Sequence record: MT446413.1
DNA: 64,000 nucleotides
Strand: one strand, 5' to 3'
DNA from: Escherichia virus TH42
The position numbers were made by a program, and so were the translations under genes. This document shows positions 17,039 through 31,890 of this stretch, in pieces. The notes beneath the pieces are model-generated. The model did no database searches. It was not told the origin of the DNA and worked only from the letters and a program-made list of their open reading frames with translations. The first letter of the stretch is position 1, and each line of letters begins with the position of its first letter.

Positions 17039-17233
17039 GTGCCACTGAACGCAGATAGGGCAAGGCTTAGAGCTTAAAGGCTGATTGATTTCCTAAAGGC
17101 GATTGCATTCCCTATAACCCTTTTTTAAATGAGGACTCCCCCTTTTACCAAAACACGCTCGGAGGGGCTAGGTCCACTCGGTCAAATCAGAATTTTAAAC
17201 CCTTATATATAACTATATGCCCCAACGTTAGTT

Positions 17234-24259: not shown

Positions 24260-25318
24260 ATGGCAAATCCAACTTTATTTGTATCTTACGACCAGAACGG
24301 TAAAAAACTTTCTTTTGCTAACTGGATTTCTGTCCTCTCTCCGCAAGATACTCCGTTTGTGTCTATGACTGGTAAAGAGTCTATCAACCAGACTATTTTC
24401 AGCTGGCAGACCGATGCACTGGCAAGTGTTGATGCTAACAACGCACACGTTGAAGGCTCTCGCGCTGATGACGGTGAAATGCAACCGACTGTTATCAAAT
24501 CTAACGTAACTCAGATCCTGCGTAAAGTAGTTCGTGTTTCTGATACTGCTAACACCACCGCTAACTACGGTCGTGGTCGTGAACTGATGTATCAGCTGGA
24601 GAAGAAAGGTAAAGAGATTAAACGTGACCTCGAGAAAATCTTGCTGTCCGGTCAGGCTCGTACCGACGTTCTGGCTGACCAGTATCTGACTAACTCAGCA
24701 GCTGATCCTGCTCTGGCTGGTCTGAATGACACTCATGCAGCTCGTAAGACTGGTGCTTTCCAGTTCCTGTGTGCCCATGGTGGTCTGTCTGGTAGCGTTG
24801 TTGATAAGACTAAGAACGGTCCTGCTGACCCGGATACCGGTGCAGTAACTGTTAAAGTTGCACAGAACGCATCTAACCCTACCACTAACGTAGGTTTTGA
24901 TGAAGCAGATATCTTTGATATGACCCTTCAGCTGTATACCGCAGGTTCTGAAGCTGATATCATCATGATTAACCCTGCTCACGCTAGCGTTTTCGCTAAG
25001 CTGCAGGAAAACTCTGTTGGTTCTCGTCAGCGTATCTTTGAGAACACTAAACAATTCATCTACGAAGTTAATAGCATCACCGACCCGCTGGGTCAGAGTT
25101 ATAAAATCATCGTTAACCGTTGGATGCCTACTGATGCAGTTTACTTCTTCCGTAGCTCTGATTGGACGCAGATGGTTCTTCGTGCACCGAAGCGTACTGA
25201 ACTGGCTAAAGACGGTTCTTACGAGAAGTGGATGATCGAGATGGAAGTTGGTCTGCGTCACCGCAACCCGTATGCTTCCGGTGTTCTGTTCACTGCTGCG
25301 GGAAAGGTAGCGGCGTAA
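24260..25318 (+). CDS. major capsid protein
   Basis: 352 aa, strong RBS, head-module position, frameshift signal at 3' end. Confidence 0.75.
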   Translation: MANPTLFVSYDQNGKKLSFANWISVLSPQDTPFVSMTGKESINQTIFSWQTDALASVDANNAHVEGSRADDGEMQPTVIKSNVTQILRKVVRVSDTANTTANYGRGRELMYQLEKKGKEIKRDLEKILLSGQARTDVLADQYLTNSAADPALAGLNDTHAARKTGAFQFLCAHGGLSGSVVDKTKNGPADPDTGAVTVKVAQNASNPTTNVGFDEADIFDMTLQLYTAGSEADIIMINPAHASVFAKLQENSVGSRQRIFENTKQFIYEVNSITDPLGQSYKIIVNRWMPTDAVYFFRSSDWTQMVLRAPKRTELAKDGSYEKWMIEMEVGLRHRNPYASGVLFTAAGKVAA

Positions 25319-25339
25319 CAGTTGACAGCGTAACTGTTA
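25300..25339 (+). promoter_or_regulatory. programmed -1 ribosomal frameshift signal
   Basis: Slippery heptamer G_GGA_AAG (X_XXY_YYZ in capsid frame) at 25300-25306, 10 nt before capsid stop; 7-bp hairpin AACAGTT/AACTGTT at 25318-25339. Confidence 0.55.
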
Positions 25340-26121
25340 GCCCTGCGTCAGTGGCAAGTCTACTGACCGGGGCTACCCAACAGTTTACAGCTCAAGCAGA
25401 ACTAAGCGACGGCTCCACATCAACTACTGGCTTTGATTGGTCAGTATCCGGTGGTGGGGCTATTTCTGCTTCTGGACTGTTCACTGCTCCGGGTTCGCCT
25501 CAAACCGCTGATATCACAGTGACTGCTACGCTTAAAGGTGTATCAAGTACTGCCGTTATTTCGGAAATTAAAGCTCCAATCCCTGACCCAGCTTCCATTG
25601 CTGTAACTGGGGGTGGTCTAACTGGTGATACTCTCACCATAACTGTTCCAGATGCTACCAGCCTGACTGCTTCTGTATCTCCTGCTGGTGCACCTCAAGG
25701 TGTTACTTGGGAAATTGCAGATCCGACTAAGGCTACGGTAACAACTGCTGGTCGTGTAACTGCTGTTGCAGCAGGTAGCACTACCCTTACAGTTAAATCT
25801 TCTACTAAACCTTCTGTCACTAAAGTGATTAATGTTGTTGTCAACCCCCAGCCTCCAACTATCGCGGCTAAAGCTGCTATTACTGGAAAATCTGGTGGAG
25901 ACAGTGTCGCTTTTACAGACATGTTTACTGTTCAACGCTCAGCTGCTAGTGACTATAATTTTGTAGTAACTCCATCTGCTGCTGGTACAGTGAATGCTGC
26001 TGGTCAGCTCACTTTAGCTGGTACGGCTAGCGGTAACGTAACTGTTAAAGCTACTCATAAAACTCAGACCTCAGTAACTGCAACTTCTACTATCACTGTT
26101 GTGGAATCAGGGTTACCCTGA
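25300..26121 (+). CDS. Ig-like domain C-terminal extension of capsid protein (-1 frameshift product)
   Basis: -1 frame is open from the slippery site to 26121; Thr/Ser/Val/Ala-rich beta-strand-like sequence typical of Ig-like decoration domains; the Met at 25228 lies inside the capsid gene and is unlikely to be an independent start. Confidence 0.55.
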   Translation, partial: GKGSGVTVDSVTVSPASVASLLTGATQQFTAQAELSDGSTSTTGFDWSVSGGGAISASGLFTAPGSPQTADITVTATLKGVSSTAVISEIKAPIPDPASIAVTGGGLTGDTLTITVPDATSLTASVSPAGAPQGVTWEIADPTKATVTTAGRVTAVAAGSTTLTVKSSTKPSVTKVINVVVNPQPPTIAAKAAITGKSGGDSVAFTDMFTVQRSAASDYNFVVTPSAAGTVNAAGQLTLAGTASGNVTVKATHKTQTSVTATSTITVVESGLP

Positions 26122-26277: not shown

Positions 26278-27024
26278 ATGGCAATGCCTGAAGTTCAGTA
26301 TCCTATCAATACCTATGGCTGGCTTAAAAAGGCTGTGTCACTCTGGGCCGATAGGGATGATGGTGAATTTGTAGATCAAATTCCAAACTTTATTAACTTT
26401 GCAGAGAAAGAAATCTATCGTAACTTACGAATCCCTCCTCTGGAAAAAGAAGTATATTTAGATATCAAGGATGGTATTGCTTTTATCCCTCCTGACTTTT
26501 TAGAAGCACAGTGGATTATGAGAGCTTCAAATGGAATGATGTTCAGAGTAACCTCTCCTGAAGAACTTGACTGGTTGAAGAGAAATAACTCAGTCAACCC
26601 ATCCAATTGGAATCAAGGGGAAGTTGTTTTTGCTCGTTTAGGTAGTCGGTTTATGTTCTACCCTCTAATTGATGCAGATACTCCTGTTTATCCTGATGAT
26701 GGAGCACCTGAAATCCCTGCTGAGAATGCTGTAGTTTTAAGTTATTATGCAGACCCACCGGAGTTCCACTCTGATGAAGATACCAGTGCTATTCTAACTA
26801 TTGCTCCTGAGCTGCTTCTATATTTTACTCTGCGTCATGCTTCTTTATTCGTTCAAGATGATAATGGAGTTCAAAAGTGGTCAGCACTTGGTAAAGCAAT
26901 CCTTGACGAGATTGTGGAGCAGAGTAAGAAAGCAGAATACTCAGGTTCCCCTCTAGTAATCCCTAATACTATTAGCCGTCTTAATAGCTCACGAGAAGTG
27001 TACGGCATTCGTAGATACAGATAA
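26278..27024 (+). CDS. virion structural protein (248 aa)
   Basis: Position between capsid and tail-fibre genes; strong RBS. Confidence 0.5.
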   Translation: MAMPEVQYPINTYGWLKKAVSLWADRDDGEFVDQIPNFINFAEKEIYRNLRIPPLEKEVYLDIKDGIAFIPPDFLEAQWIMRASNGMMFRVTSPEELDWLKRNNSVNPSNWNQGEVVFARLGSRFMFYPLIDADTPVYPDDGAPEIPAENAVVLSYYADPPEFHSDEDTSAILTIAPELLLYFTLRHASLFVQDDNGVQKWSALGKAILDEIVEQSKKAEYSGSPLVIPNTISRLNSSREVYGIRRYR

Positions 27025-27033
27025 GGAGAACAT

Positions 27034-29667
27034 ATGATCGTTTATAACAACCAAGAACCTACTACAGTAAATAATGTAGGCCAATTTGGTGCAACAGAAG
27101 GCTCTATCGGAGCCTATAAACAAGCAGCTGAGTATGCTGCTGATTCTAAATATTGGGCACTTTTAGCTGAGTCTAAGTTTGGTACAGTTGATGATCTTAT
27201 TGCTGAAGTAGAGAAACTTTATAAGCAAGGTATTCTATTACAGCAAGATATTGAAGATCTGAAACAGGACTTTAAAGATCAAGATGCTCGACTGATGCAA
27301 CTGATTGCACAGACTAACGCAGCTGTTGCTAATGCTAACAACTCTATTGCTTTGATTAACCAAAAACTGATTGAAGTCGATCAGCAACTTGATATCCTGT
27401 TGGCTATGAAAGTTACAGTGACCACTCTTCCTCCGGGTTCTGAAGCTACTGGTTCTTTCAATAACCAAACTGGTGAAATCAAGCTAGGTATTCCTGAAGG
27501 TGAGCCGGGTCGTGATGGTTCTGTAACCGACTTAAACACTGCCCCAACGGGGGTTCCAGAAGCAGGGGATATTGGTTTTTATGTTGACCCTGATGACAAC
27601 AAAGTGTATAAAACCAGCCTCAGTAATATCGCTAACTTAATCCCTTCTGTTCGTTCTATCAAAGTTAATGATGGTCCAGAACAAACTGGAGATGTAGCCC
27701 TTACTCTTGATAAGAACGTTGTTGGCCTAGGTAACGTTCTGAACGTTGCTCAATATAGTCGTCAAGAGATTAATGACAAATTCGATAAACCTATTAAAAT
27801 ATATCAAACTAAAGCTGATGCTGATGCAAATGCTCAATATCGTCAAACAGGCGAATCTGTTATGGTTTGGGAAAACACTCAATATGTTTTCTACACCGTT
27901 TCAGCTAATAAAACACTAATTCCAGCTAAAACCGAAGGTCGTATTATTACAGTTAACTCACGATCTCCTGACTCATCTGGCAACATTGATATTACTATTC
28001 CTACAGGGAACCCTTCTTTGTATCTCGGTGAGATGGTTATGTTCCCATATGACCCAGCTAAGAATATCTCTTACCCCGGTGTACTACCTGCTGATGGTCG
28101 CTTGGTTTCTAAGGAAAGTGCTTTAGATTTAGGTCCATCTTTGGTCAGTGGCCAATTACCAGTAGTTAGTGAAACTGAATGGCAGTCCGGTGCTAAGCAG
28201 TATTTCTCTTGGGGTAAACTGGCTGATGGTTTTACTGATGCAGACTCTAGCAACTTCATCAGCATCCGACTTCCAGATTGGACTGGTGGGGAAGCTATTC
28301 GTGCTCCAGACGCTGACAAAGATTCTCAATATGACGGGTCTGTTCAATCTCAGAAACCTTATGTGGTTACTGTTAACAATCAAGCTCCTGATGAAGCTAC
28401 AGGTAATGTTACTATTTCTAGAACTACTCTAGGAGCTGCTTCTTCTGGTGCAAACTCAGACATAACCTCTATTACAGGACTTACGACTGCTCTCTCTGTT
28501 TCTCAGGGTGGTACAGGTGGTAAGACAGCAACCGAAGCCCGTGGAAATTTAGGGTTGGATAAGATTGATCAACAGGAATCTGAAACTAAGATTTTATCCC
28601 CTGACAAAAGTACTTACATGTTTGTAGATAATGCCGGCTGGGGTTGTTATAATAACACAACAGGAACAGTTGCACTTACTGTAGAACGTGGAGGCACTGG
28701 AGCTACTGATGCTGCTATCGCTAGAACAAATTTAGGCCTTGGCTCAATTTCTACCTTAAGCAACGTCCCTGTTGCTAGTGGTGGTACAGGTGCAACTAAT
28801 GCAGCTGGAGCAAGAACTAATCTTGGATTAGGGAACATCTCTACACTAAATAACGTCCCTGTTGCTAGTGGTGGTACAGGTGCAACTAATGCAGCTGGAG
28901 CAAGAACTAATCTTGGATTAGGCAACTCAGCCACAATGAACACTGGAACAAATAGTGATAACGTTCTTAAGGTAGGTGATTTTGGTATTGGGAGACCTGA
29001 TGGTGCTTTAGTTTTTGATACAACGTCCCAAGACGCCCTTCTTGCATCACTTGGCAACTACGGTCTTAGTGTCTTTAGAAATAACCAACAAATTCCAGCT
29101 CCTTGGGACATATGGAATTATTCCTCAAACCTTTTCTTTAAGGCAGGTGATACGTACAGTATGATAAGTATCCCATTTGAGAGTGCTGGCAAGATAAAAG
29201 TTTTTGGTGGTGCTGAGGGGCAGGGATGGAAAACTTCGAGGACGGTATACGATACCGTAAATACAACTGTTGACGTCAATGGTTTTATTAAAGCAGCGTC
29301 ACCAATAGTAAAAGTGTTTCATGATGGAAGTTTTGAAACAAATGAACAATCAGATGGAGTTAGTGTTAAAAGAATTTCAGCTGGAGTGTATTTAGTTTCA
29401 GGATGCCTAGGTCTCAATTCAGATGCAGGGTGGGGTGGGGTTAATGGTGGTTTTGAGATACCGTGTGATATTAACAAACAAGCGAAAGTATGGCTTGATT
29501 ACGAAGTGAAAGAAGATGGTTCTATTCTGGTAAAAACTTACCACAGAACACATCCTACTTCTCCCGTCTTTGCTCGTAATGAGATTGAAGGATATTCTGA
29601 TGGGGACCCTATTGACATACCGAAAGATACTTTCATCTCTGTTCGTATTGAAATGCCATCTAAGTAA
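27034..29667 (+). CDS. tail fibre/tail protein with internal tandem repeat (877 aa)
   Basis: Repeated peptide VPVASGGTGATNAAGARTNLGLG encoded by a 90-bp tandem duplication; own terminator. Confidence 0.6.
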   Translation: MIVYNNQEPTTVNNVGQFGATEGSIGAYKQAAEYAADSKYWALLAESKFGTVDDLIAEVEKLYKQGILLQQDIEDLKQDFKDQDARLMQLIAQTNAAVANANNSIALINQKLIEVDQQLDILLAMKVTVTTLPPGSEATGSFNNQTGEIKLGIPEGEPGRDGSVTDLNTAPTGVPEAGDIGFYVDPDDNKVYKTSLSNIANLIPSVRSIKVNDGPEQTGDVALTLDKNVVGLGNVLNVAQYSRQEINDKFDKPIKIYQTKADADANAQYRQTGESVMVWENTQYVFYTVSANKTLIPAKTEGRIITVNSRSPDSSGNIDITIPTGNPSLYLGEMVMFPYDPAKNISYPGVLPADGRLVSKESALDLGPSLVSGQLPVVSETEWQSGAKQYFSWGKLADGFTDADSSNFISIRLPDWTGGEAIRAPDADKDSQYDGSVQSQKPYVVTVNNQAPDEATGNVTISRTTLGAASSGANSDITSITGLTTALSVSQGGTGGKTATEARGNLGLDKIDQQESETKILSPDKSTYMFVDNAGWGCYNNTTGTVALTVERGGTGATDAAIARTNLGLGSISTLSNVPVASGGTGATNAAGARTNLGLGNISTLNNVPVASGGTGATNAAGARTNLGLGNSATMNTGTNSDNVLKVGDFGIGRPDGALVFDTTSQDALLASLGNYGLSVFRNNQQIPAPWDIWNYSSNLFFKAGDTYSMISIPFESAGKIKVFGGAEGQGWKTSRTVYDTVNTTVDVNGFIKAASPIVKVFHDGSFETNEQSDGVSVKRISAGVYLVSGCLGLNSDAGWGGVNGGFEIPCDINKQAKVWLDYEVKEDGSILVKTYHRTHPTSPVFARNEIEGYSDGDPIDIPKDTFISVRIEMPSK
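28741..28920 (+). repeat. 2 x 90-bp tandem direct repeat inside tail-fibre gene
   Basis: 69-nt core AACGTCCCTGTTGCTAGTGGTGGTACAGGTGCAACTAATGCAGCTGGAGCAAGAACTAATCTTGGATTA identical at 28762-28830 and 28852-28920. Confidence 0.85.
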
Positions 29668-29712: not shown

Positions 29713-31890
29713 ATGTCTAGAGAGTTAATGCCCAAGTCTGGGATAATGATGCCTCATGTTGTAGTATCACGAGATGCTGCTGTTGTCGGTGTATCTACTG
29801 TTGATGGTGCCGCTGGCGCTATCGACCTAACTAATAAATATTTACAGAAGACTGCAGCTGAAAACACCTATATGACAAAAACTGAAGGTGCTACTAAGGT
29901 TTATGTTTCAGACTCTATTGCCCCTATTATGGAAGGTGCTCTGTTTAAATCTGATCCTTTTGTAGCTAATGATGTACCATTCCGTGCTGCTGGGGCTAAT
30001 GGTGTAGAGTCTGTCGATATGATTAAAGTTACACCAGAGAACACTATCAAAATCGGTAGCTACGCTTCTTCTGTTCAGGGTGTAGAAGTTCACACTGCTG
30101 GTCGTCTTCAGGTTGTGGATTTGAATGACGGTGGTGTAGAAACTAAATATCCTGTCTACTCAAAACGGTATCGTCCTGAGATTGATGAACTTCCTTTTGC
30201 AGCGATCGGTTCATATGTCAAGGATTCTAAAGGACGCACTATTGGTGTAACTCGTACTGGTATCAACTCTGATATAACTCAGATGACTCAGAAAGTAACC
30301 TTCACACAACCAGTAACTGTTGCAGATGCTGTAGGAGATTATGATGCAGTTACCTACCGTCAACTTAAGAATCAGGGTGGTGGTTCTGGTGGTCCTACCA
30401 TGAGTGGTATCTCCAACTTTGGTATTGGTGATTTCCATCTTCGTGATAGTCGTGCTTTCATTCCTGCATTCGAAGTTGTATCCGATGGTCAGCTACTGAA
30501 TCGTGCTGATTACCCTGATCTTTGGGCTTATGCCCAGCTGTTAACTCCTATCACAGATGCTGCTTGGTTGGCTGATGCACAGCAACGAGGTAAATATTCA
30601 ACTGGTGATGGTTCTACTACCTTCCGTGTTCCTGATAGGAATGGTGTTCAGAGTGGCTCTCTGAAAGAACTCTTTGCTCGTGGTGATGGTGGTAATAGTA
30701 GTAATAATGGAATGGCTTATGATGCGGCACTTCCTAACATCGTAGGTTACACTGCCCACACTCTTTTAACTGCTGCGAGTAATCAAGGACAGGTTGCTAC
30801 CGATGGAGCTTTTACCTCTACAACCTCAACCTCAGGTGTTTGGCCTTTGTCTGGCGGCGGCGGTCTTTATACCAACATTCAGCTTAACGCTAACAACAGT
30901 GATGCTACTTATGGTCGCTACGGAATCACAGCGAATGCTATCCCTCGTAACTTCATTGGTGTTTGGACTATCCGTGCTCATGGTGGGTTTGTAGCAGCTA
31001 ATACTTCTTGGGCTGTTATTAACAGTGATACCTCTCGACCTTCAGCTGGTTCAAAAGCGACTGGTGGTTCTATCTTATCTCAGTATAAAATAGGCTCTGA
31101 TGTAGAAGCTGAGACTTACTTGAAAACTGATGCTTATATCAACGGAACTTACTACGGAGTTATTGGTGTTATTAACAAAACCAAAGGAGTGACTTCTGAG
31201 CTAACCTTTGGTGATGATGGCATCCTAAACTCTAACAAATACAGAGCAAGGCAAGTCTCGGGTTTGAGTTGGAATAATACAGGAGTTGAGAAGGGTACTT
31301 ATGCAATTGAAGATGTTAACATAGGAACTAACTATAACTTCAACAGTATAATCAGTGCTGCACAATCTTCTAATTCTGGTTACAGAACTTCTACTCATAT
31401 CGGTCAAATTCATAATGACGGTGGCTCTTTTGCTCAATCCTGCTGGCATGTATCAGGAGATGAAACTAACCAATATGGTGTTCGTCTTGCCATCCAACCT
31501 AACTATGAAGATATTTATTACTACTTCTGGGCACCAGATGTTTCTCGAACCTACACTCTTCAGAAGAATGCTGTCTCTGATGAACGTCTTAAGCGTGACA
31601 TTTACGATCTTGATGCGTCTAGGCCTATTGAAATTTTGAAAGGTTTGACTTTCCGTTCCTTTGTCTATAAGGATGATGAAAAGCAGAGAACTCGTCGTGG
31701 TGTTATTGCACAGGAGGCAGAGAAGGTAGAACCTCTGTATGTTAAGACGATTAACTTCTATGACCCTGATGGTAGCAAGAAAGATCAGAAACAGCTGGAT
31801 ACAACTCCTATGCTTCTTGATACAATGGCGGTAGTTCAAGACCTCCTAAAACGTGTTGAAGAGTTAGAAGCTAAACTGGCTGCTAAGTAA
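29713..31890 (+). CDS. tail fibre/tailspike with C-terminal intramolecular chaperone domain
   Basis: 725 aa; C-terminal SDERLKRDIYDL...GLTFRSF...RRGVIAQE resembles the self-cleaving chaperone domain of endosialidase-type fibres (recalled, not searched). Confidence 0.6.
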   Translation: MSRELMPKSGIMMPHVVVSRDAAVVGVSTVDGAAGAIDLTNKYLQKTAAENTYMTKTEGATKVYVSDSIAPIMEGALFKSDPFVANDVPFRAAGANGVESVDMIKVTPENTIKIGSYASSVQGVEVHTAGRLQVVDLNDGGVETKYPVYSKRYRPEIDELPFAAIGSYVKDSKGRTIGVTRTGINSDITQMTQKVTFTQPVTVADAVGDYDAVTYRQLKNQGGGSGGPTMSGISNFGIGDFHLRDSRAFIPAFEVVSDGQLLNRADYPDLWAYAQLLTPITDAAWLADAQQRGKYSTGDGSTTFRVPDRNGVQSGSLKELFARGDGGNSSNNGMAYDAALPNIVGYTAHTLLTAASNQGQVATDGAFTSTTSTSGVWPLSGGGGLYTNIQLNANNSDATYGRYGITANAIPRNFIGVWTIRAHGGFVAANTSWAVINSDTSRPSAGSKATGGSILSQYKIGSDVEAETYLKTDAYINGTYYGVIGVINKTKGVTSELTFGDDGILNSNKYRARQVSGLSWNNTGVEKGTYAIEDVNIGTNYNFNSIISAAQSSNSGYRTSTHIGQIHNDGGSFAQSCWHVSGDETNQYGVRLAIQPNYEDIYYYFWAPDVSRTYTLQKNAVSDERLKRDIYDLDASRPIEILKGLTFRSFVYKDDEKQRTRRGVIAQEAEKVEPLYVKTINFYDPDGSKKDQKQLDTTPMLLDTMAVVQDLLKRVEELEAKLAAK

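Follow-up and report, generated by a model that had tools for sequence, protein, structure and literature searches.

A probable gene-conversion patch between neighbouring shaft units of a Kuravirus proximal long tail fibre gene

Results

We have found two exact 71-nt copies of one sequence, 90 bp apart, in the proximal long tail fibre gene of the window (the whole stretch of DNA that was analysed, 64 kb long). Comparison with related phages makes it likely that this identity is a gene-conversion patch in an ancestral array of repeat units, formed without net insertion of 90 bp, and that the array served later as a substrate for the gain and loss of units. The repeat is a case of ordinary tail-fibre repeat dynamics, which are of a known kind, and does not represent a new kind of system. 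The features discussed below are collected in Table 1.

Table 1. Positions in the window of the fibre gene, its neighbours, the shaft units and the repeated sequences
Feature	Position	Strand	Remarks
Tail adaptor gene, SU10 gp11-type	26278-27024	+	PF24175 SU10_adaptor, E 4e-29; directly upstream of the fibre gene
Proximal long tail fibre gene, 877 aa	27034-29667	+	SU10 gp12 / phiEco32 gp14 orthologue; holds the repeat
L unit, aa 492-552	28507-28689	+	GGTG head, then an inserted small beta domain of ~35 aa; from unit parsing
GGTGGTACAGGTG, 13-nt exact microhomology	28507-28519	+	Recurs at the starts of S2 (28780-28792) and S3 (28870-28882)
S1 unit, aa 553-582, GGTGATDAAIARTNLGLGSISTLSNVPVAS	28690-28779	+	Last 18 nt within the putatively converted tract
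Exact copy A, 71 nt	28762-28832	+	End of S1 tail plus S2 head; probable recipient of the conversion
S2 unit, aa 583-612	28780-28869	+	Chimera by sequence comparison: S3-type head, S2-type linker and tail
Exact copy B, 71 nt	28852-28922	+	End of S2 tail plus S3 head; probable donor
S3 head, aa 613-630, terminal unit	28870-28923	+	Joins directly to the conserved NSATMNTGTNSDNVLKVGDFG that opens the C-terminal part
Distal long tail fibre / receptor-binding protein gene, SU10 gp13-type	29713-31890	+	PF13884 Peptidase_S74, E 4.6e-12; weak Collar match

The fibre gene and its neighbours

Judged from its sequence, the product of the ORF that holds the repeat is a Kuravirus proximal long tail fibre protein of the SU10 gp12 type, which bears out the original prediction that the repeat lies within a tail-fibre gene. 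A phmmer search against PDB entry 7Z47_D (the SU10 ‘putative tail fiber’, 786 aa) gave E=0 with residues 1-503 and 583-877 aligned. The C-terminus matches PF25670 (Phage_tail_C_2; residues 743-876, E 9.3e-61), and the protein falls in PHROG 10305, tail fiber. The order of genes, with the adaptor followed by the proximal fibre and then by the distal fibre, whose product carries a C-terminal intramolecular chaperone (S74), is that of the relatives' loci; the adaptor gene is also found just ahead of the fibre gene in L004-L006, L008 and L009. A search of IMG/VR for related loci returned only four kuraviruses already in GenBank, along with T5-like loci.

The N-terminal 490 residues are proposed to serve in virion attachment and in docking of the distal fibre. 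In the structure of SU10 gp12 only residues 1-90, the adaptor-binding N-terminal part, were built (PMC9509320), and T-shaped distal fibres are known to attach to the proximal fibre (PMC11990801).

Unit architecture of the shaft

Past residue 491 the shaft is a string of units, each opening with GGTG, that come in two sizes: short (S) units of 30 aa and long (L) units of 61-68 aa. The layout in the window protein is L-S1-S2-S3, and the heads of S1 and S2 match at only ~60-70%. In the AF2 model the L unit, which is missing from SU10 and TH34, has a helix (residues 499-506) and four strands with pLDDT of 70-88. The full-length AF2 monomer (mean pLDDT 53, pTM 0.26) gives each unit a short helix of 7 residues and an extended segment, the pLDDT of the S units being only ~45-55. 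Searches with the repeat region alone against Pfam, at E up to 10, and against NCBIfam yielded no family, and the S/L repeat unit is thus without a curated family.

By comparison across the relatives, the array would form a variable-length spacer between the conserved N-terminal 490 residues and an exchangeable C-terminal domain; the number of units would then set how long the fibre is or how far it reaches. The 120 representative homologues show at least 20 layouts of units. The smallest, in P0047 (730 aa), is a lone GGTG head and the largest has five units; insertions and deletions comprise whole units. The L-S-S-S layout is present at the same residue positions in seven relatives (P0002, P0006, P0038, P0041, P0043, SR02 and phiEco32), whereas P0004 has L-S-S.

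Since these seven relatives have the three-S-unit array at the same residue positions, the window fibre is not longer than theirs: it has 877 aa, against 878-881 aa in P0002, P0006, SR02 and phiEco32, with which it has the C-terminal domain in common. The fibres of P0038, P0041 and P0043 (852-854 aa) have a different C-terminal domain. The suggestion that the repeat is a way to vary fibre length is borne out in part: the number of units varies widely across the family and appears to have changed in TH34, but the window fibre itself has not been lengthened relative to its relatives.

An exact repeat with abrupt borders

The identity originally reported (69 nt, 28762-28830 and 28852-28920) is confirmed, and the exact match runs 2 bases further, to 71 nt. 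The two copies, at an offset of 90, are codon-aligned in the fibre ORF and encode NVPVASGGTGATNAAGARTNLGL(G) twice. They make the sole exact direct repeat of ≥30 nt in the whole window. Exact-pattern scans for the repeat unit, with a 47-mer in IMG/VR and with a 35-mer in JGI metagenome contigs, gave no match and so added no close relatives. A coding role for the antisense ORF at 28647-29057 (136 aa) was rejected, this ORF being merely the reverse reading of the repeat.

Neighbouring units in eleven relatives have 38-51 of the 71 positions in common, which puts identity at all 71 far beyond chance; at 72% per-site identity, the probability of 71 consecutive matches is ~7e-11. Of the 90-base period only 71 bases are identical, and the borders of the tract are abrupt: there are 0/71 differences inside it, whereas in either 19-nt flank 9/19 positions differ at offset 90. 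By chance, all 18 differences would lie beyond the tract with a probability of 2e-10. Among the 120 homologues, two identical 24-aa cores are present only in the window protein (P0001) and in that of TH34 (P0035), the next case having 20/24. Synonymous sites are identical as well, which supports the predicted recent copying event; convergent selection on the protein as the cause of the identity is ruled out on the same ground.

The original prediction took the repeat for a recent 90-bp tandem duplication that added a new 30-residue unit and would have lengthened the fibre. Tandem Repeats Finder does report an in-frame array with a period of exactly 90 nt (28762-28926, 1.8 copies, 98% matches, score 323), which is the only sizeable one in the window (the other consists of 2 copies of 19 nt at 17075); P0004 has one S unit fewer, and an exact 90-nt copy of the S2 unit does occur in TH34. 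However, the identity extends over 71 nt rather than 90, and even the best chimera of the flank junction leaves 6/19 mismatches to the 19-nt spacer while the tract has none. Comparison with related phages, offered as a check on the duplication, goes against it too: the array is as long as in the seven relatives, the outgroups are not one unit shorter except for P0004, and the linker of S2 matches the orthologous linker in P0002 (see below). We consider the addition of a new unit very unlikely.

Diversity-generating retroelements (DGRs) often target tail fibres, and two similar repeats in a fibre gene might be taken for the template and variable repeats of such an element. Here, however, the copies are identical (0/71), with no adenine-specific differences, and they are adjacent, both of them in the coding frame of the shaft region and outside any C-terminal ligand-binding fold. 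To our knowledge, no reverse transcriptase has been described for Kuravirus. A DGR has practically no chance of being the right explanation.

The chimeric unit and its probable origin

The fibre gene of P0002 is 79% identical to that of the window over the gene, and by comparison with it the S2 unit is a chimera. The head of S2 matches the S3 head of P0002 at 49/54 positions, against 39/54 for the S2 head, while the remainder of the unit is like P0002 S2 (29/36 in the tail and 16/18 in the linker); the S1 linker likewise matches that of P0002 S1 at 15/18, although linkers of 18 nt provide few sites for orthology when the nearest outgroups with DNA other than TH34 are only ~79% identical in nucleotides. 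The S3 head matches its P0002 counterpart at 50/54 positions, with the same amino-acid sequence.

With an S3-type head set in the frame of an S2 unit, S2 probably arose by gene conversion in an array that already existed. The patch of identity, with its abrupt borders, lies inside diverged paralogous units; the putatively converted segment resembles orthologues at the donor position, and its flanks resemble those at the recipient position; the number of units is unchanged, L-S-S-S as in the seven relatives. The direction of the conversion would be from copy B to copy A, because in relatives the ATNAAGARTNLGLG head belongs to the terminal unit and the ...AS ending stands just before the terminal unit.

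We infer the following course of events, including the recombination mechanism itself. The 30-residue GGTG units, all in frame, make up an array older than the event, which can be placed in the common ancestor of the window phage and TH34. A short non-reciprocal recombination would have copied 71 nt, made up of the S2 end and the S3 head, onto the S1 end and the S2 head, leaving two neighbouring units identical over the patch and the unit count as it was. The two 71-nt copies, identical and 90 bp apart, and the 13-nt GGTGGTACAGGTG found at the starts of L, S2 and S3 may then have provided substrates for unequal recombination or replication slippage, by which whole units would be added or removed; the arrangement in TH34 would be the product of such events.

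Two successive unequal crossovers or slippages could also account for the window array, the first being a gain that gave L-S1-S2-(S3 head + S2 tail)-S3 and the second a loss of the original S2 that restored three units. Unequal crossing over between the heads of S2 and S3 would give just such a chimeric unit, and TH34 gives evidence of whole-unit gains and losses in the lineage; this route would leave nearly the same sequence as a single conversion, and the present data appear to fit both. It needs two events, however, where one suffices, and it leaves unexplained the identity of the last 18 nt of S1 with the S2 end unless the second crossover fell there. We regard the two-step route as unlikely, though it keeps some weight, and prefer a single gene conversion.

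Gain and loss of units in TH34

The flanks of the array in TH34 (MT446407) are 98.6-99.5% identical to those in the window. TH34 is without L and S1 (273 nt) upstream of the repeat: the alignment with the window breaks at 28519 and resumes at 28747, window positions 28520-28746 being missing, and the junction of the deletion sits in the 13-nt GGTGGTACAGGTG microhomology. It has the S2 and S3 sequences as in the window, plus a second exact 90-nt copy of S2. The TH34 record carries the flag UNVERIFIED; its two ends overlap, by 530 bp, precisely at the array, and they agree with each other. Comparison of the two sequences indicates that whole-unit gain and loss occurs at this locus.

Tandem repeats of 90 bp are hard for short-read assemblers, and the TH34 record breaks and overlaps exactly at the array, so that an assembly error in the deposited genome, with the repeat misjoined or collapsed, has to be weighed. 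Yet the 71-nt tract is present twice or more in TH34 too, which was sequenced independently, and the array keeps to the reading frame and to the 30-residue period found in all the relatives. An artefact, moreover, would not make a chimera with parts orthologous to different units of the relatives. We find an assembly error highly improbable.

Discussion

The locus offers a sequence-level example of fibre shaft evolution: at short conserved GGTG joints, whole 30-residue units appear to be homogenised, added or removed, and this independently of the receptor-binding tip. It also cautions that exact repeat identity is not to be taken for a new insertion before relatives are checked. In Kuravirus genomes the repeat is a likely site both of assembly errors and of real heterogeneity, and it is here that the record of TH34 breaks. 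For fibre-length engineering and C-terminal domain swaps, the boundaries between units suggest themselves as natural splice points.

It is conceivable, though in our opinion quite unlikely, that the GGTG heads (GGTGGTACAGGTG-like DNA and the ARxNLG helix) are built-in recombination joints, with which Kuravirus, T5-like and other phages exchange C-terminal domains and alter the length of the proximal fibre appreciably often within a population. If that were true, the reach of the fibre could be tuned rapidly, in a quasi-phase-variable manner, to match O-antigen or capsule thickness, and the homogenised pair would be an ‘armed’ state in which units are gained and lost at a higher rate, TH34 being one outcome.

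Comparison with known systems

The closest counterparts are SU10 gp12, phiEco32 gp14 and Bas87 Gp9 (Kuravirus, Gordonclarkvirinae), which are like the window fibre in full-length orthology, in their neighbours and in PF25670. The SU10 fibre has only two S units in 786 aa, whereas the window fibre has L and three S units in 877 aa, two of them apparently homogenised.

The papers found in searches for a case of gene conversion or tandem repeats in tail fibres were for the most part unrelated, the useful precedent being LtfA of the T5-like phage DT571/2. This protein is homologous to residues 239-508 of phiEco32 gp14, has a tandem-repeat block directly after that region and gained one repeat copy in a laboratory mutant (Golomidova et al. 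2016, PMC4728585). In LtfA of both DT57C and DT571/2 the repeat block takes the same position of a homologous fibre protein as in the window. The LtfA block has a 19-aa period (VDSALADKADIATTYTKME), whereas the window has 30-residue units of different sequence; the change of copy number in LtfA was selected experimentally, whereas the window event is a homogenisation deduced by comparison.

In the Rod and Shaft of the R1 and R2 pyocin fibres (PDB 6CL5, 6CL6, 6CT8), LPLARGGLGANTAAGARNNIGAG resembles the window unit core VPxASGGTGAxxAAGARxNLG. Matches of the core to 6CL5, 6CT8 and 6CL6 are weak (E 0.02-0.06), and there are also weak ones to the 9zd7 and 8vbx fibres. The helix-plus-turn repeats of pyocins have been argued to evolve by duplication, adjusting fibre length (Buth et al. 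2018, PMC6116203). Unlike the Kuravirus units, for which the shape is that predicted in a low-confidence AF2 monomer, the pyocin motif does not recur every 30 residues. In the pyocin Shaft 70 residues span ~93 Å (PMC6116203), and by analogy each S unit would be expected to have an axial rise of roughly 4 nm.

In T-even phages, Tetart et al. (1996 and 1998) reportedly found duplications and motif-mediated recombination in the distal fibre and adhesin genes. Glycine-rich motifs of gp38 in these phages are a subject of Trojet et al. (2011, PMC3157838). The T-even fibre genes are like that of the window in having short conserved motifs as sites of duplication or module exchange. They differ in where the change falls: the T-even events affect the receptor-binding tip and alter host range, whereas those proposed for the window affect the shaft spacer of the proximal fibre.

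A 71-nt exact repeat in a proximal tail fibre gene

Positions 28762–28832 and 28852–28922 of the window are identical throughout, so that the identity reported in the original prediction for 28762–28830 and 28852–28920 is confirmed and extends two bases beyond the 69-nt core first described. Tandem Repeats Finder assigns the repeat a period of 90, 1.8 copies and 98% matches, and no exact direct repeat of ≥30 nt other than this pair was found in the whole 64-kb window. Apart from this pair, only a small 19-nt tandem repeat at 17075–17114 (2.1 copies, 86% matches) was reported. The 71-nt repeat is codon-aligned in the fibre ORF and is translated twice to NVPVASGGTGATNAAGARTNLGL(G). An antisense ORF of 136 aa (28647–29057, minus strand) crosses it, with the duplication visible in its translation; in all likelihood it is a mere consequence of the repeat and no gene.

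The product of the fibre ORF is the proximal long tail fibre protein of a Kuravirus (phiEco32/SU10-like, Gordonclarkvirinae). It aligns with the SU10 'putative tail fiber' (PDB 7Z47 chain D, 786 aa; E=0) over residues 1–503 and 583–877, and its C-terminal end is Pfam PF25670. In the SU10 orthologue the first 90 residues alone could be built, the remainder being flexible (PMC9509320); a T-shaped distal receptor-binding protein docks on the proximal fibre protein (PMC11990801). At the locus of the homologue P0043 (L008 240–752, Logan SRR6713706 contig) an HNH_3 homing-endonuclease gene lies directly upstream of the adaptor gene and overlaps its start; the equivalent place in the window has no such gene, and 25228–26121 encodes a Big_2 protein.

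Features of the fibre locus in the window
Feature	Coordinates	Strand	Remarks
SU10-type adaptor gene	26278–27024		upstream of fibre gene; PF24175
Proximal long tail fibre gene	27034–29667	+	877 aa; SU10 match, C-terminal PF25670
L unit	28507–28689
S1 unit	28690–28779
S2 unit	28780–28869
S3 unit	28870–28923		head only; C-terminal part comes next
Fibre gene with Peptidase_S74 chaperone	29713–31890		725 aa; downstream of proximal fibre gene

Unit structure of the fibre shaft

A string of GGTG-headed units starts after a conserved ...GANSDITS.TGLTTALSVSQ in the fibre protein. The short (S) unit has 30 aa (GGTGAxxAxxARxNLGLG-xxSTLxx-VPxAx), while in the long (L) unit, of 61–68 aa, an S-type head leads into a small beta domain (∼35 aa). 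Since the shaft is such a string, the 90-bp period is an old feature, and the 'module' of the original prediction corresponds to a single S unit. At least 20 unit layouts occur in 120 representative homologues. At one extreme is a lone GGTG head without a following unit (P0047, 730 aa), at the other an array of five units, and between them lie S-S (SU10 type), L-S-S, L-S-S-S, S-L-S-S and L-L-L; the length differences among these representatives are whole units. In some relatives (P0038, P0041 and P0043) an S74-bearing C-terminus stands in place of PF25670 and follows immediately on the final GGTG unit, which puts the array at the gene's mosaic junction.

Probable gene conversion in an ancestral array

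The original prediction took the repeat for a recent 90-bp tandem duplication and called for comparison with related phages. For this comparison the DNA of seven relatives was fetched along with that of four more from IMG/VR. L-S-S-S is present at the window's residue positions in P0002, P0006, P0038, P0041, P0043, SR02 and phiEco32. The window fibre is no longer than theirs: it has 877 aa vs 878–881 aa where the C-terminal domain is the same (P0002, P0006, SR02 and phiEco32), with 852–854 aa where the C-terminal domain is the different, S74-bearing one. Neighbouring units in eleven relatives match at only 38–51 of these 71 positions. When the window is compared with itself at offset 90, the tract is identical at 71/71 positions vs 10/19 in each adjoining 19-nt block, and the chance of all 18 differences missing the tract is 2e-10. 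Had an X1-core-X3 ancestor simply been duplicated over 90 bp, the spacer between the copies would have to be an X3/X1 junction; the best such chimera leaves 6 mismatches in 19.

P0002 (79% identical over the gene) served as the reference for positional orthology. At like positions the window matches it in the S1 linker (15/18), S2 linker (16/18), S3 head (50/54) and S3 linker (30/36). The S2 head matches the S2 head of P0002 at only 39/54 positions vs 49/54 for the S3 head of P0002. Window S2 is thus a chimera, a terminal-unit head in the S2 frame. The ancestral three-unit array, the 71-nt patch with abrupt borders, the spacer misfit and the orthology of the S2 linker all argue against a freshly added 90-bp unit; the identity is better described as a conversion patch.

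The most economical reading of these alignments is a single gene conversion, in which 71 nt (the last 18 nt of S2 and the first 53 nt of S3) would have been copied onto the last 18 nt of S1 and the first 53 nt of S2. The end of S2 and head of S3 would be the donor, and the end of S1 and head of S2 the recipient, because in P0002 and P0006 it is the terminal unit that has the ATNAAGARTNLGLG head, and because in relatives the ...AS ending is normally found ahead of that unit. Two unequal crossovers in succession would yield nearly the same product as one conversion; we consider such a pair of events less likely.

Homogenised units are rare among homologues, with identical 24-aa cores in only 2 of the 120 representatives (the window and Escherichia virus TH34) and 20/24 as the next best. 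The original interpretation is supported in part. The event was rightly called recent: the tract copies are exactly identical, and the proposed conversion took place long after the P0002 lineage had split off. It would predate the split between the window and TH34, since TH34 carries the converted tract too.

Probable gain and loss of units in TH34

TH34 (MT446407, Kuravirus, flagged UNVERIFIED) is the closest GenBank record to the window, 98.6% identical upstream of the array (2360 nt) and 99.5% downstream (2281 nt), and differs inside it. The TH34 array reads ALSVSQ-S2-S2-S3, with units identical to window S2 and S3, and 28520–28746 of the window is absent. L (28507–28519) and S2 (28780–28792) start with the same 13 nt, GGTGGTACAGGTG, and the deletion has its junction there. 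The deletion is probably real, because an overlap of 13 nt is too short for any assembler to join on. A further exact 90-nt copy of S2, as the TH34 record has it, is to be expected if the two 71-nt repeats recombine unequally. The two ends of the linear record (MT446407.1; L001 and L003) overlap by 530 bp centred on the array and agree save for one 1-nt indel; the S2 copy number is provisional. Because this overlap falls within the tail-fibre gene, the record start is an arbitrary assembly break and not a direct terminal repeat; such repeats of ∼193 bp have been described for this phage group (PMC9965538). The locus is recombinationally active, as the original prediction implied, the TH34 record showing a probable deletion on the L and S1 side and an apparent added S2 copy.

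Possible role of the array

The unit core weakly matches R1/R2 pyocin fibres (6CL5, 6CT8 and 6CL6; LPLARGGLGANTAAGARNNIGAG; E 0.02–0.06), as well as repeats of two further solved fibres (9zd7 gp92 and 8vbx gp47). No Pfam or NCBIfam model was found over the unit; many PHROG tail-fibre families cover it. Pyocin fibre rods are built of helix-plus-turn repeats, which according to the authors arise by duplication and permit adjustment of fibre length (PMC6116203). In an AF2 monomer model (poor, mean pLDDT 53) each AAGARTN is a 7-residue helix, and the L unit has a helix with four strands (pLDDT 70–88). The array starts directly after the region homologous to phiEco32 gp14 residues 239–508, proposed by Golomidova et al. 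as the contact for a second fibre protein (PMC4728585). The homologous LtfA of T5-like DT571/2 has a tandem repeat at the same place, but a different one, of which a laboratory mutant gained one copy (PMC4728585). We infer for the array the role of a variable-length spacer, which would set the distance from the docking region to the C-terminal domain.

Relation to known systems

T5-like L-shaped tail fibre genes (L014–L024, on IMG/VR contigs of 108–120 kb) share residues ∼239–640 of the window fibre protein at 30–39% identity, GGTG units included; this sharing and the match of the protein to PDB 8hqz_d (E 1.8e-43) agree with the published homology of DT57C LtfA and phiEco32 gp14. The S-unit DNA (28775–28950; hits H70–H74) has 78–82% nucleotide identity over ∼85 nt to tail-fibre genes of the Klebsiella jumbo phages RaK2 and K64-1, and more weakly matches Shigella and Pseudomonas phage records. 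Judged from these matches, very different phages share the S unit, possibly through horizontal exchange.

Fibre genes are well known to undergo duplication and homogenisation of repeats and motif-mediated exchange of modules, as in T-even gp37/gp38, pyocin fibres and DT57C LtfA. Module exchange in T-even fibre genes is also among the matters treated in PMC3157838. Our literature search found no paper on the GGTG-unit array in Kuravirus; its description is a small addition to the known dynamics of fibre genes and not a new kind.
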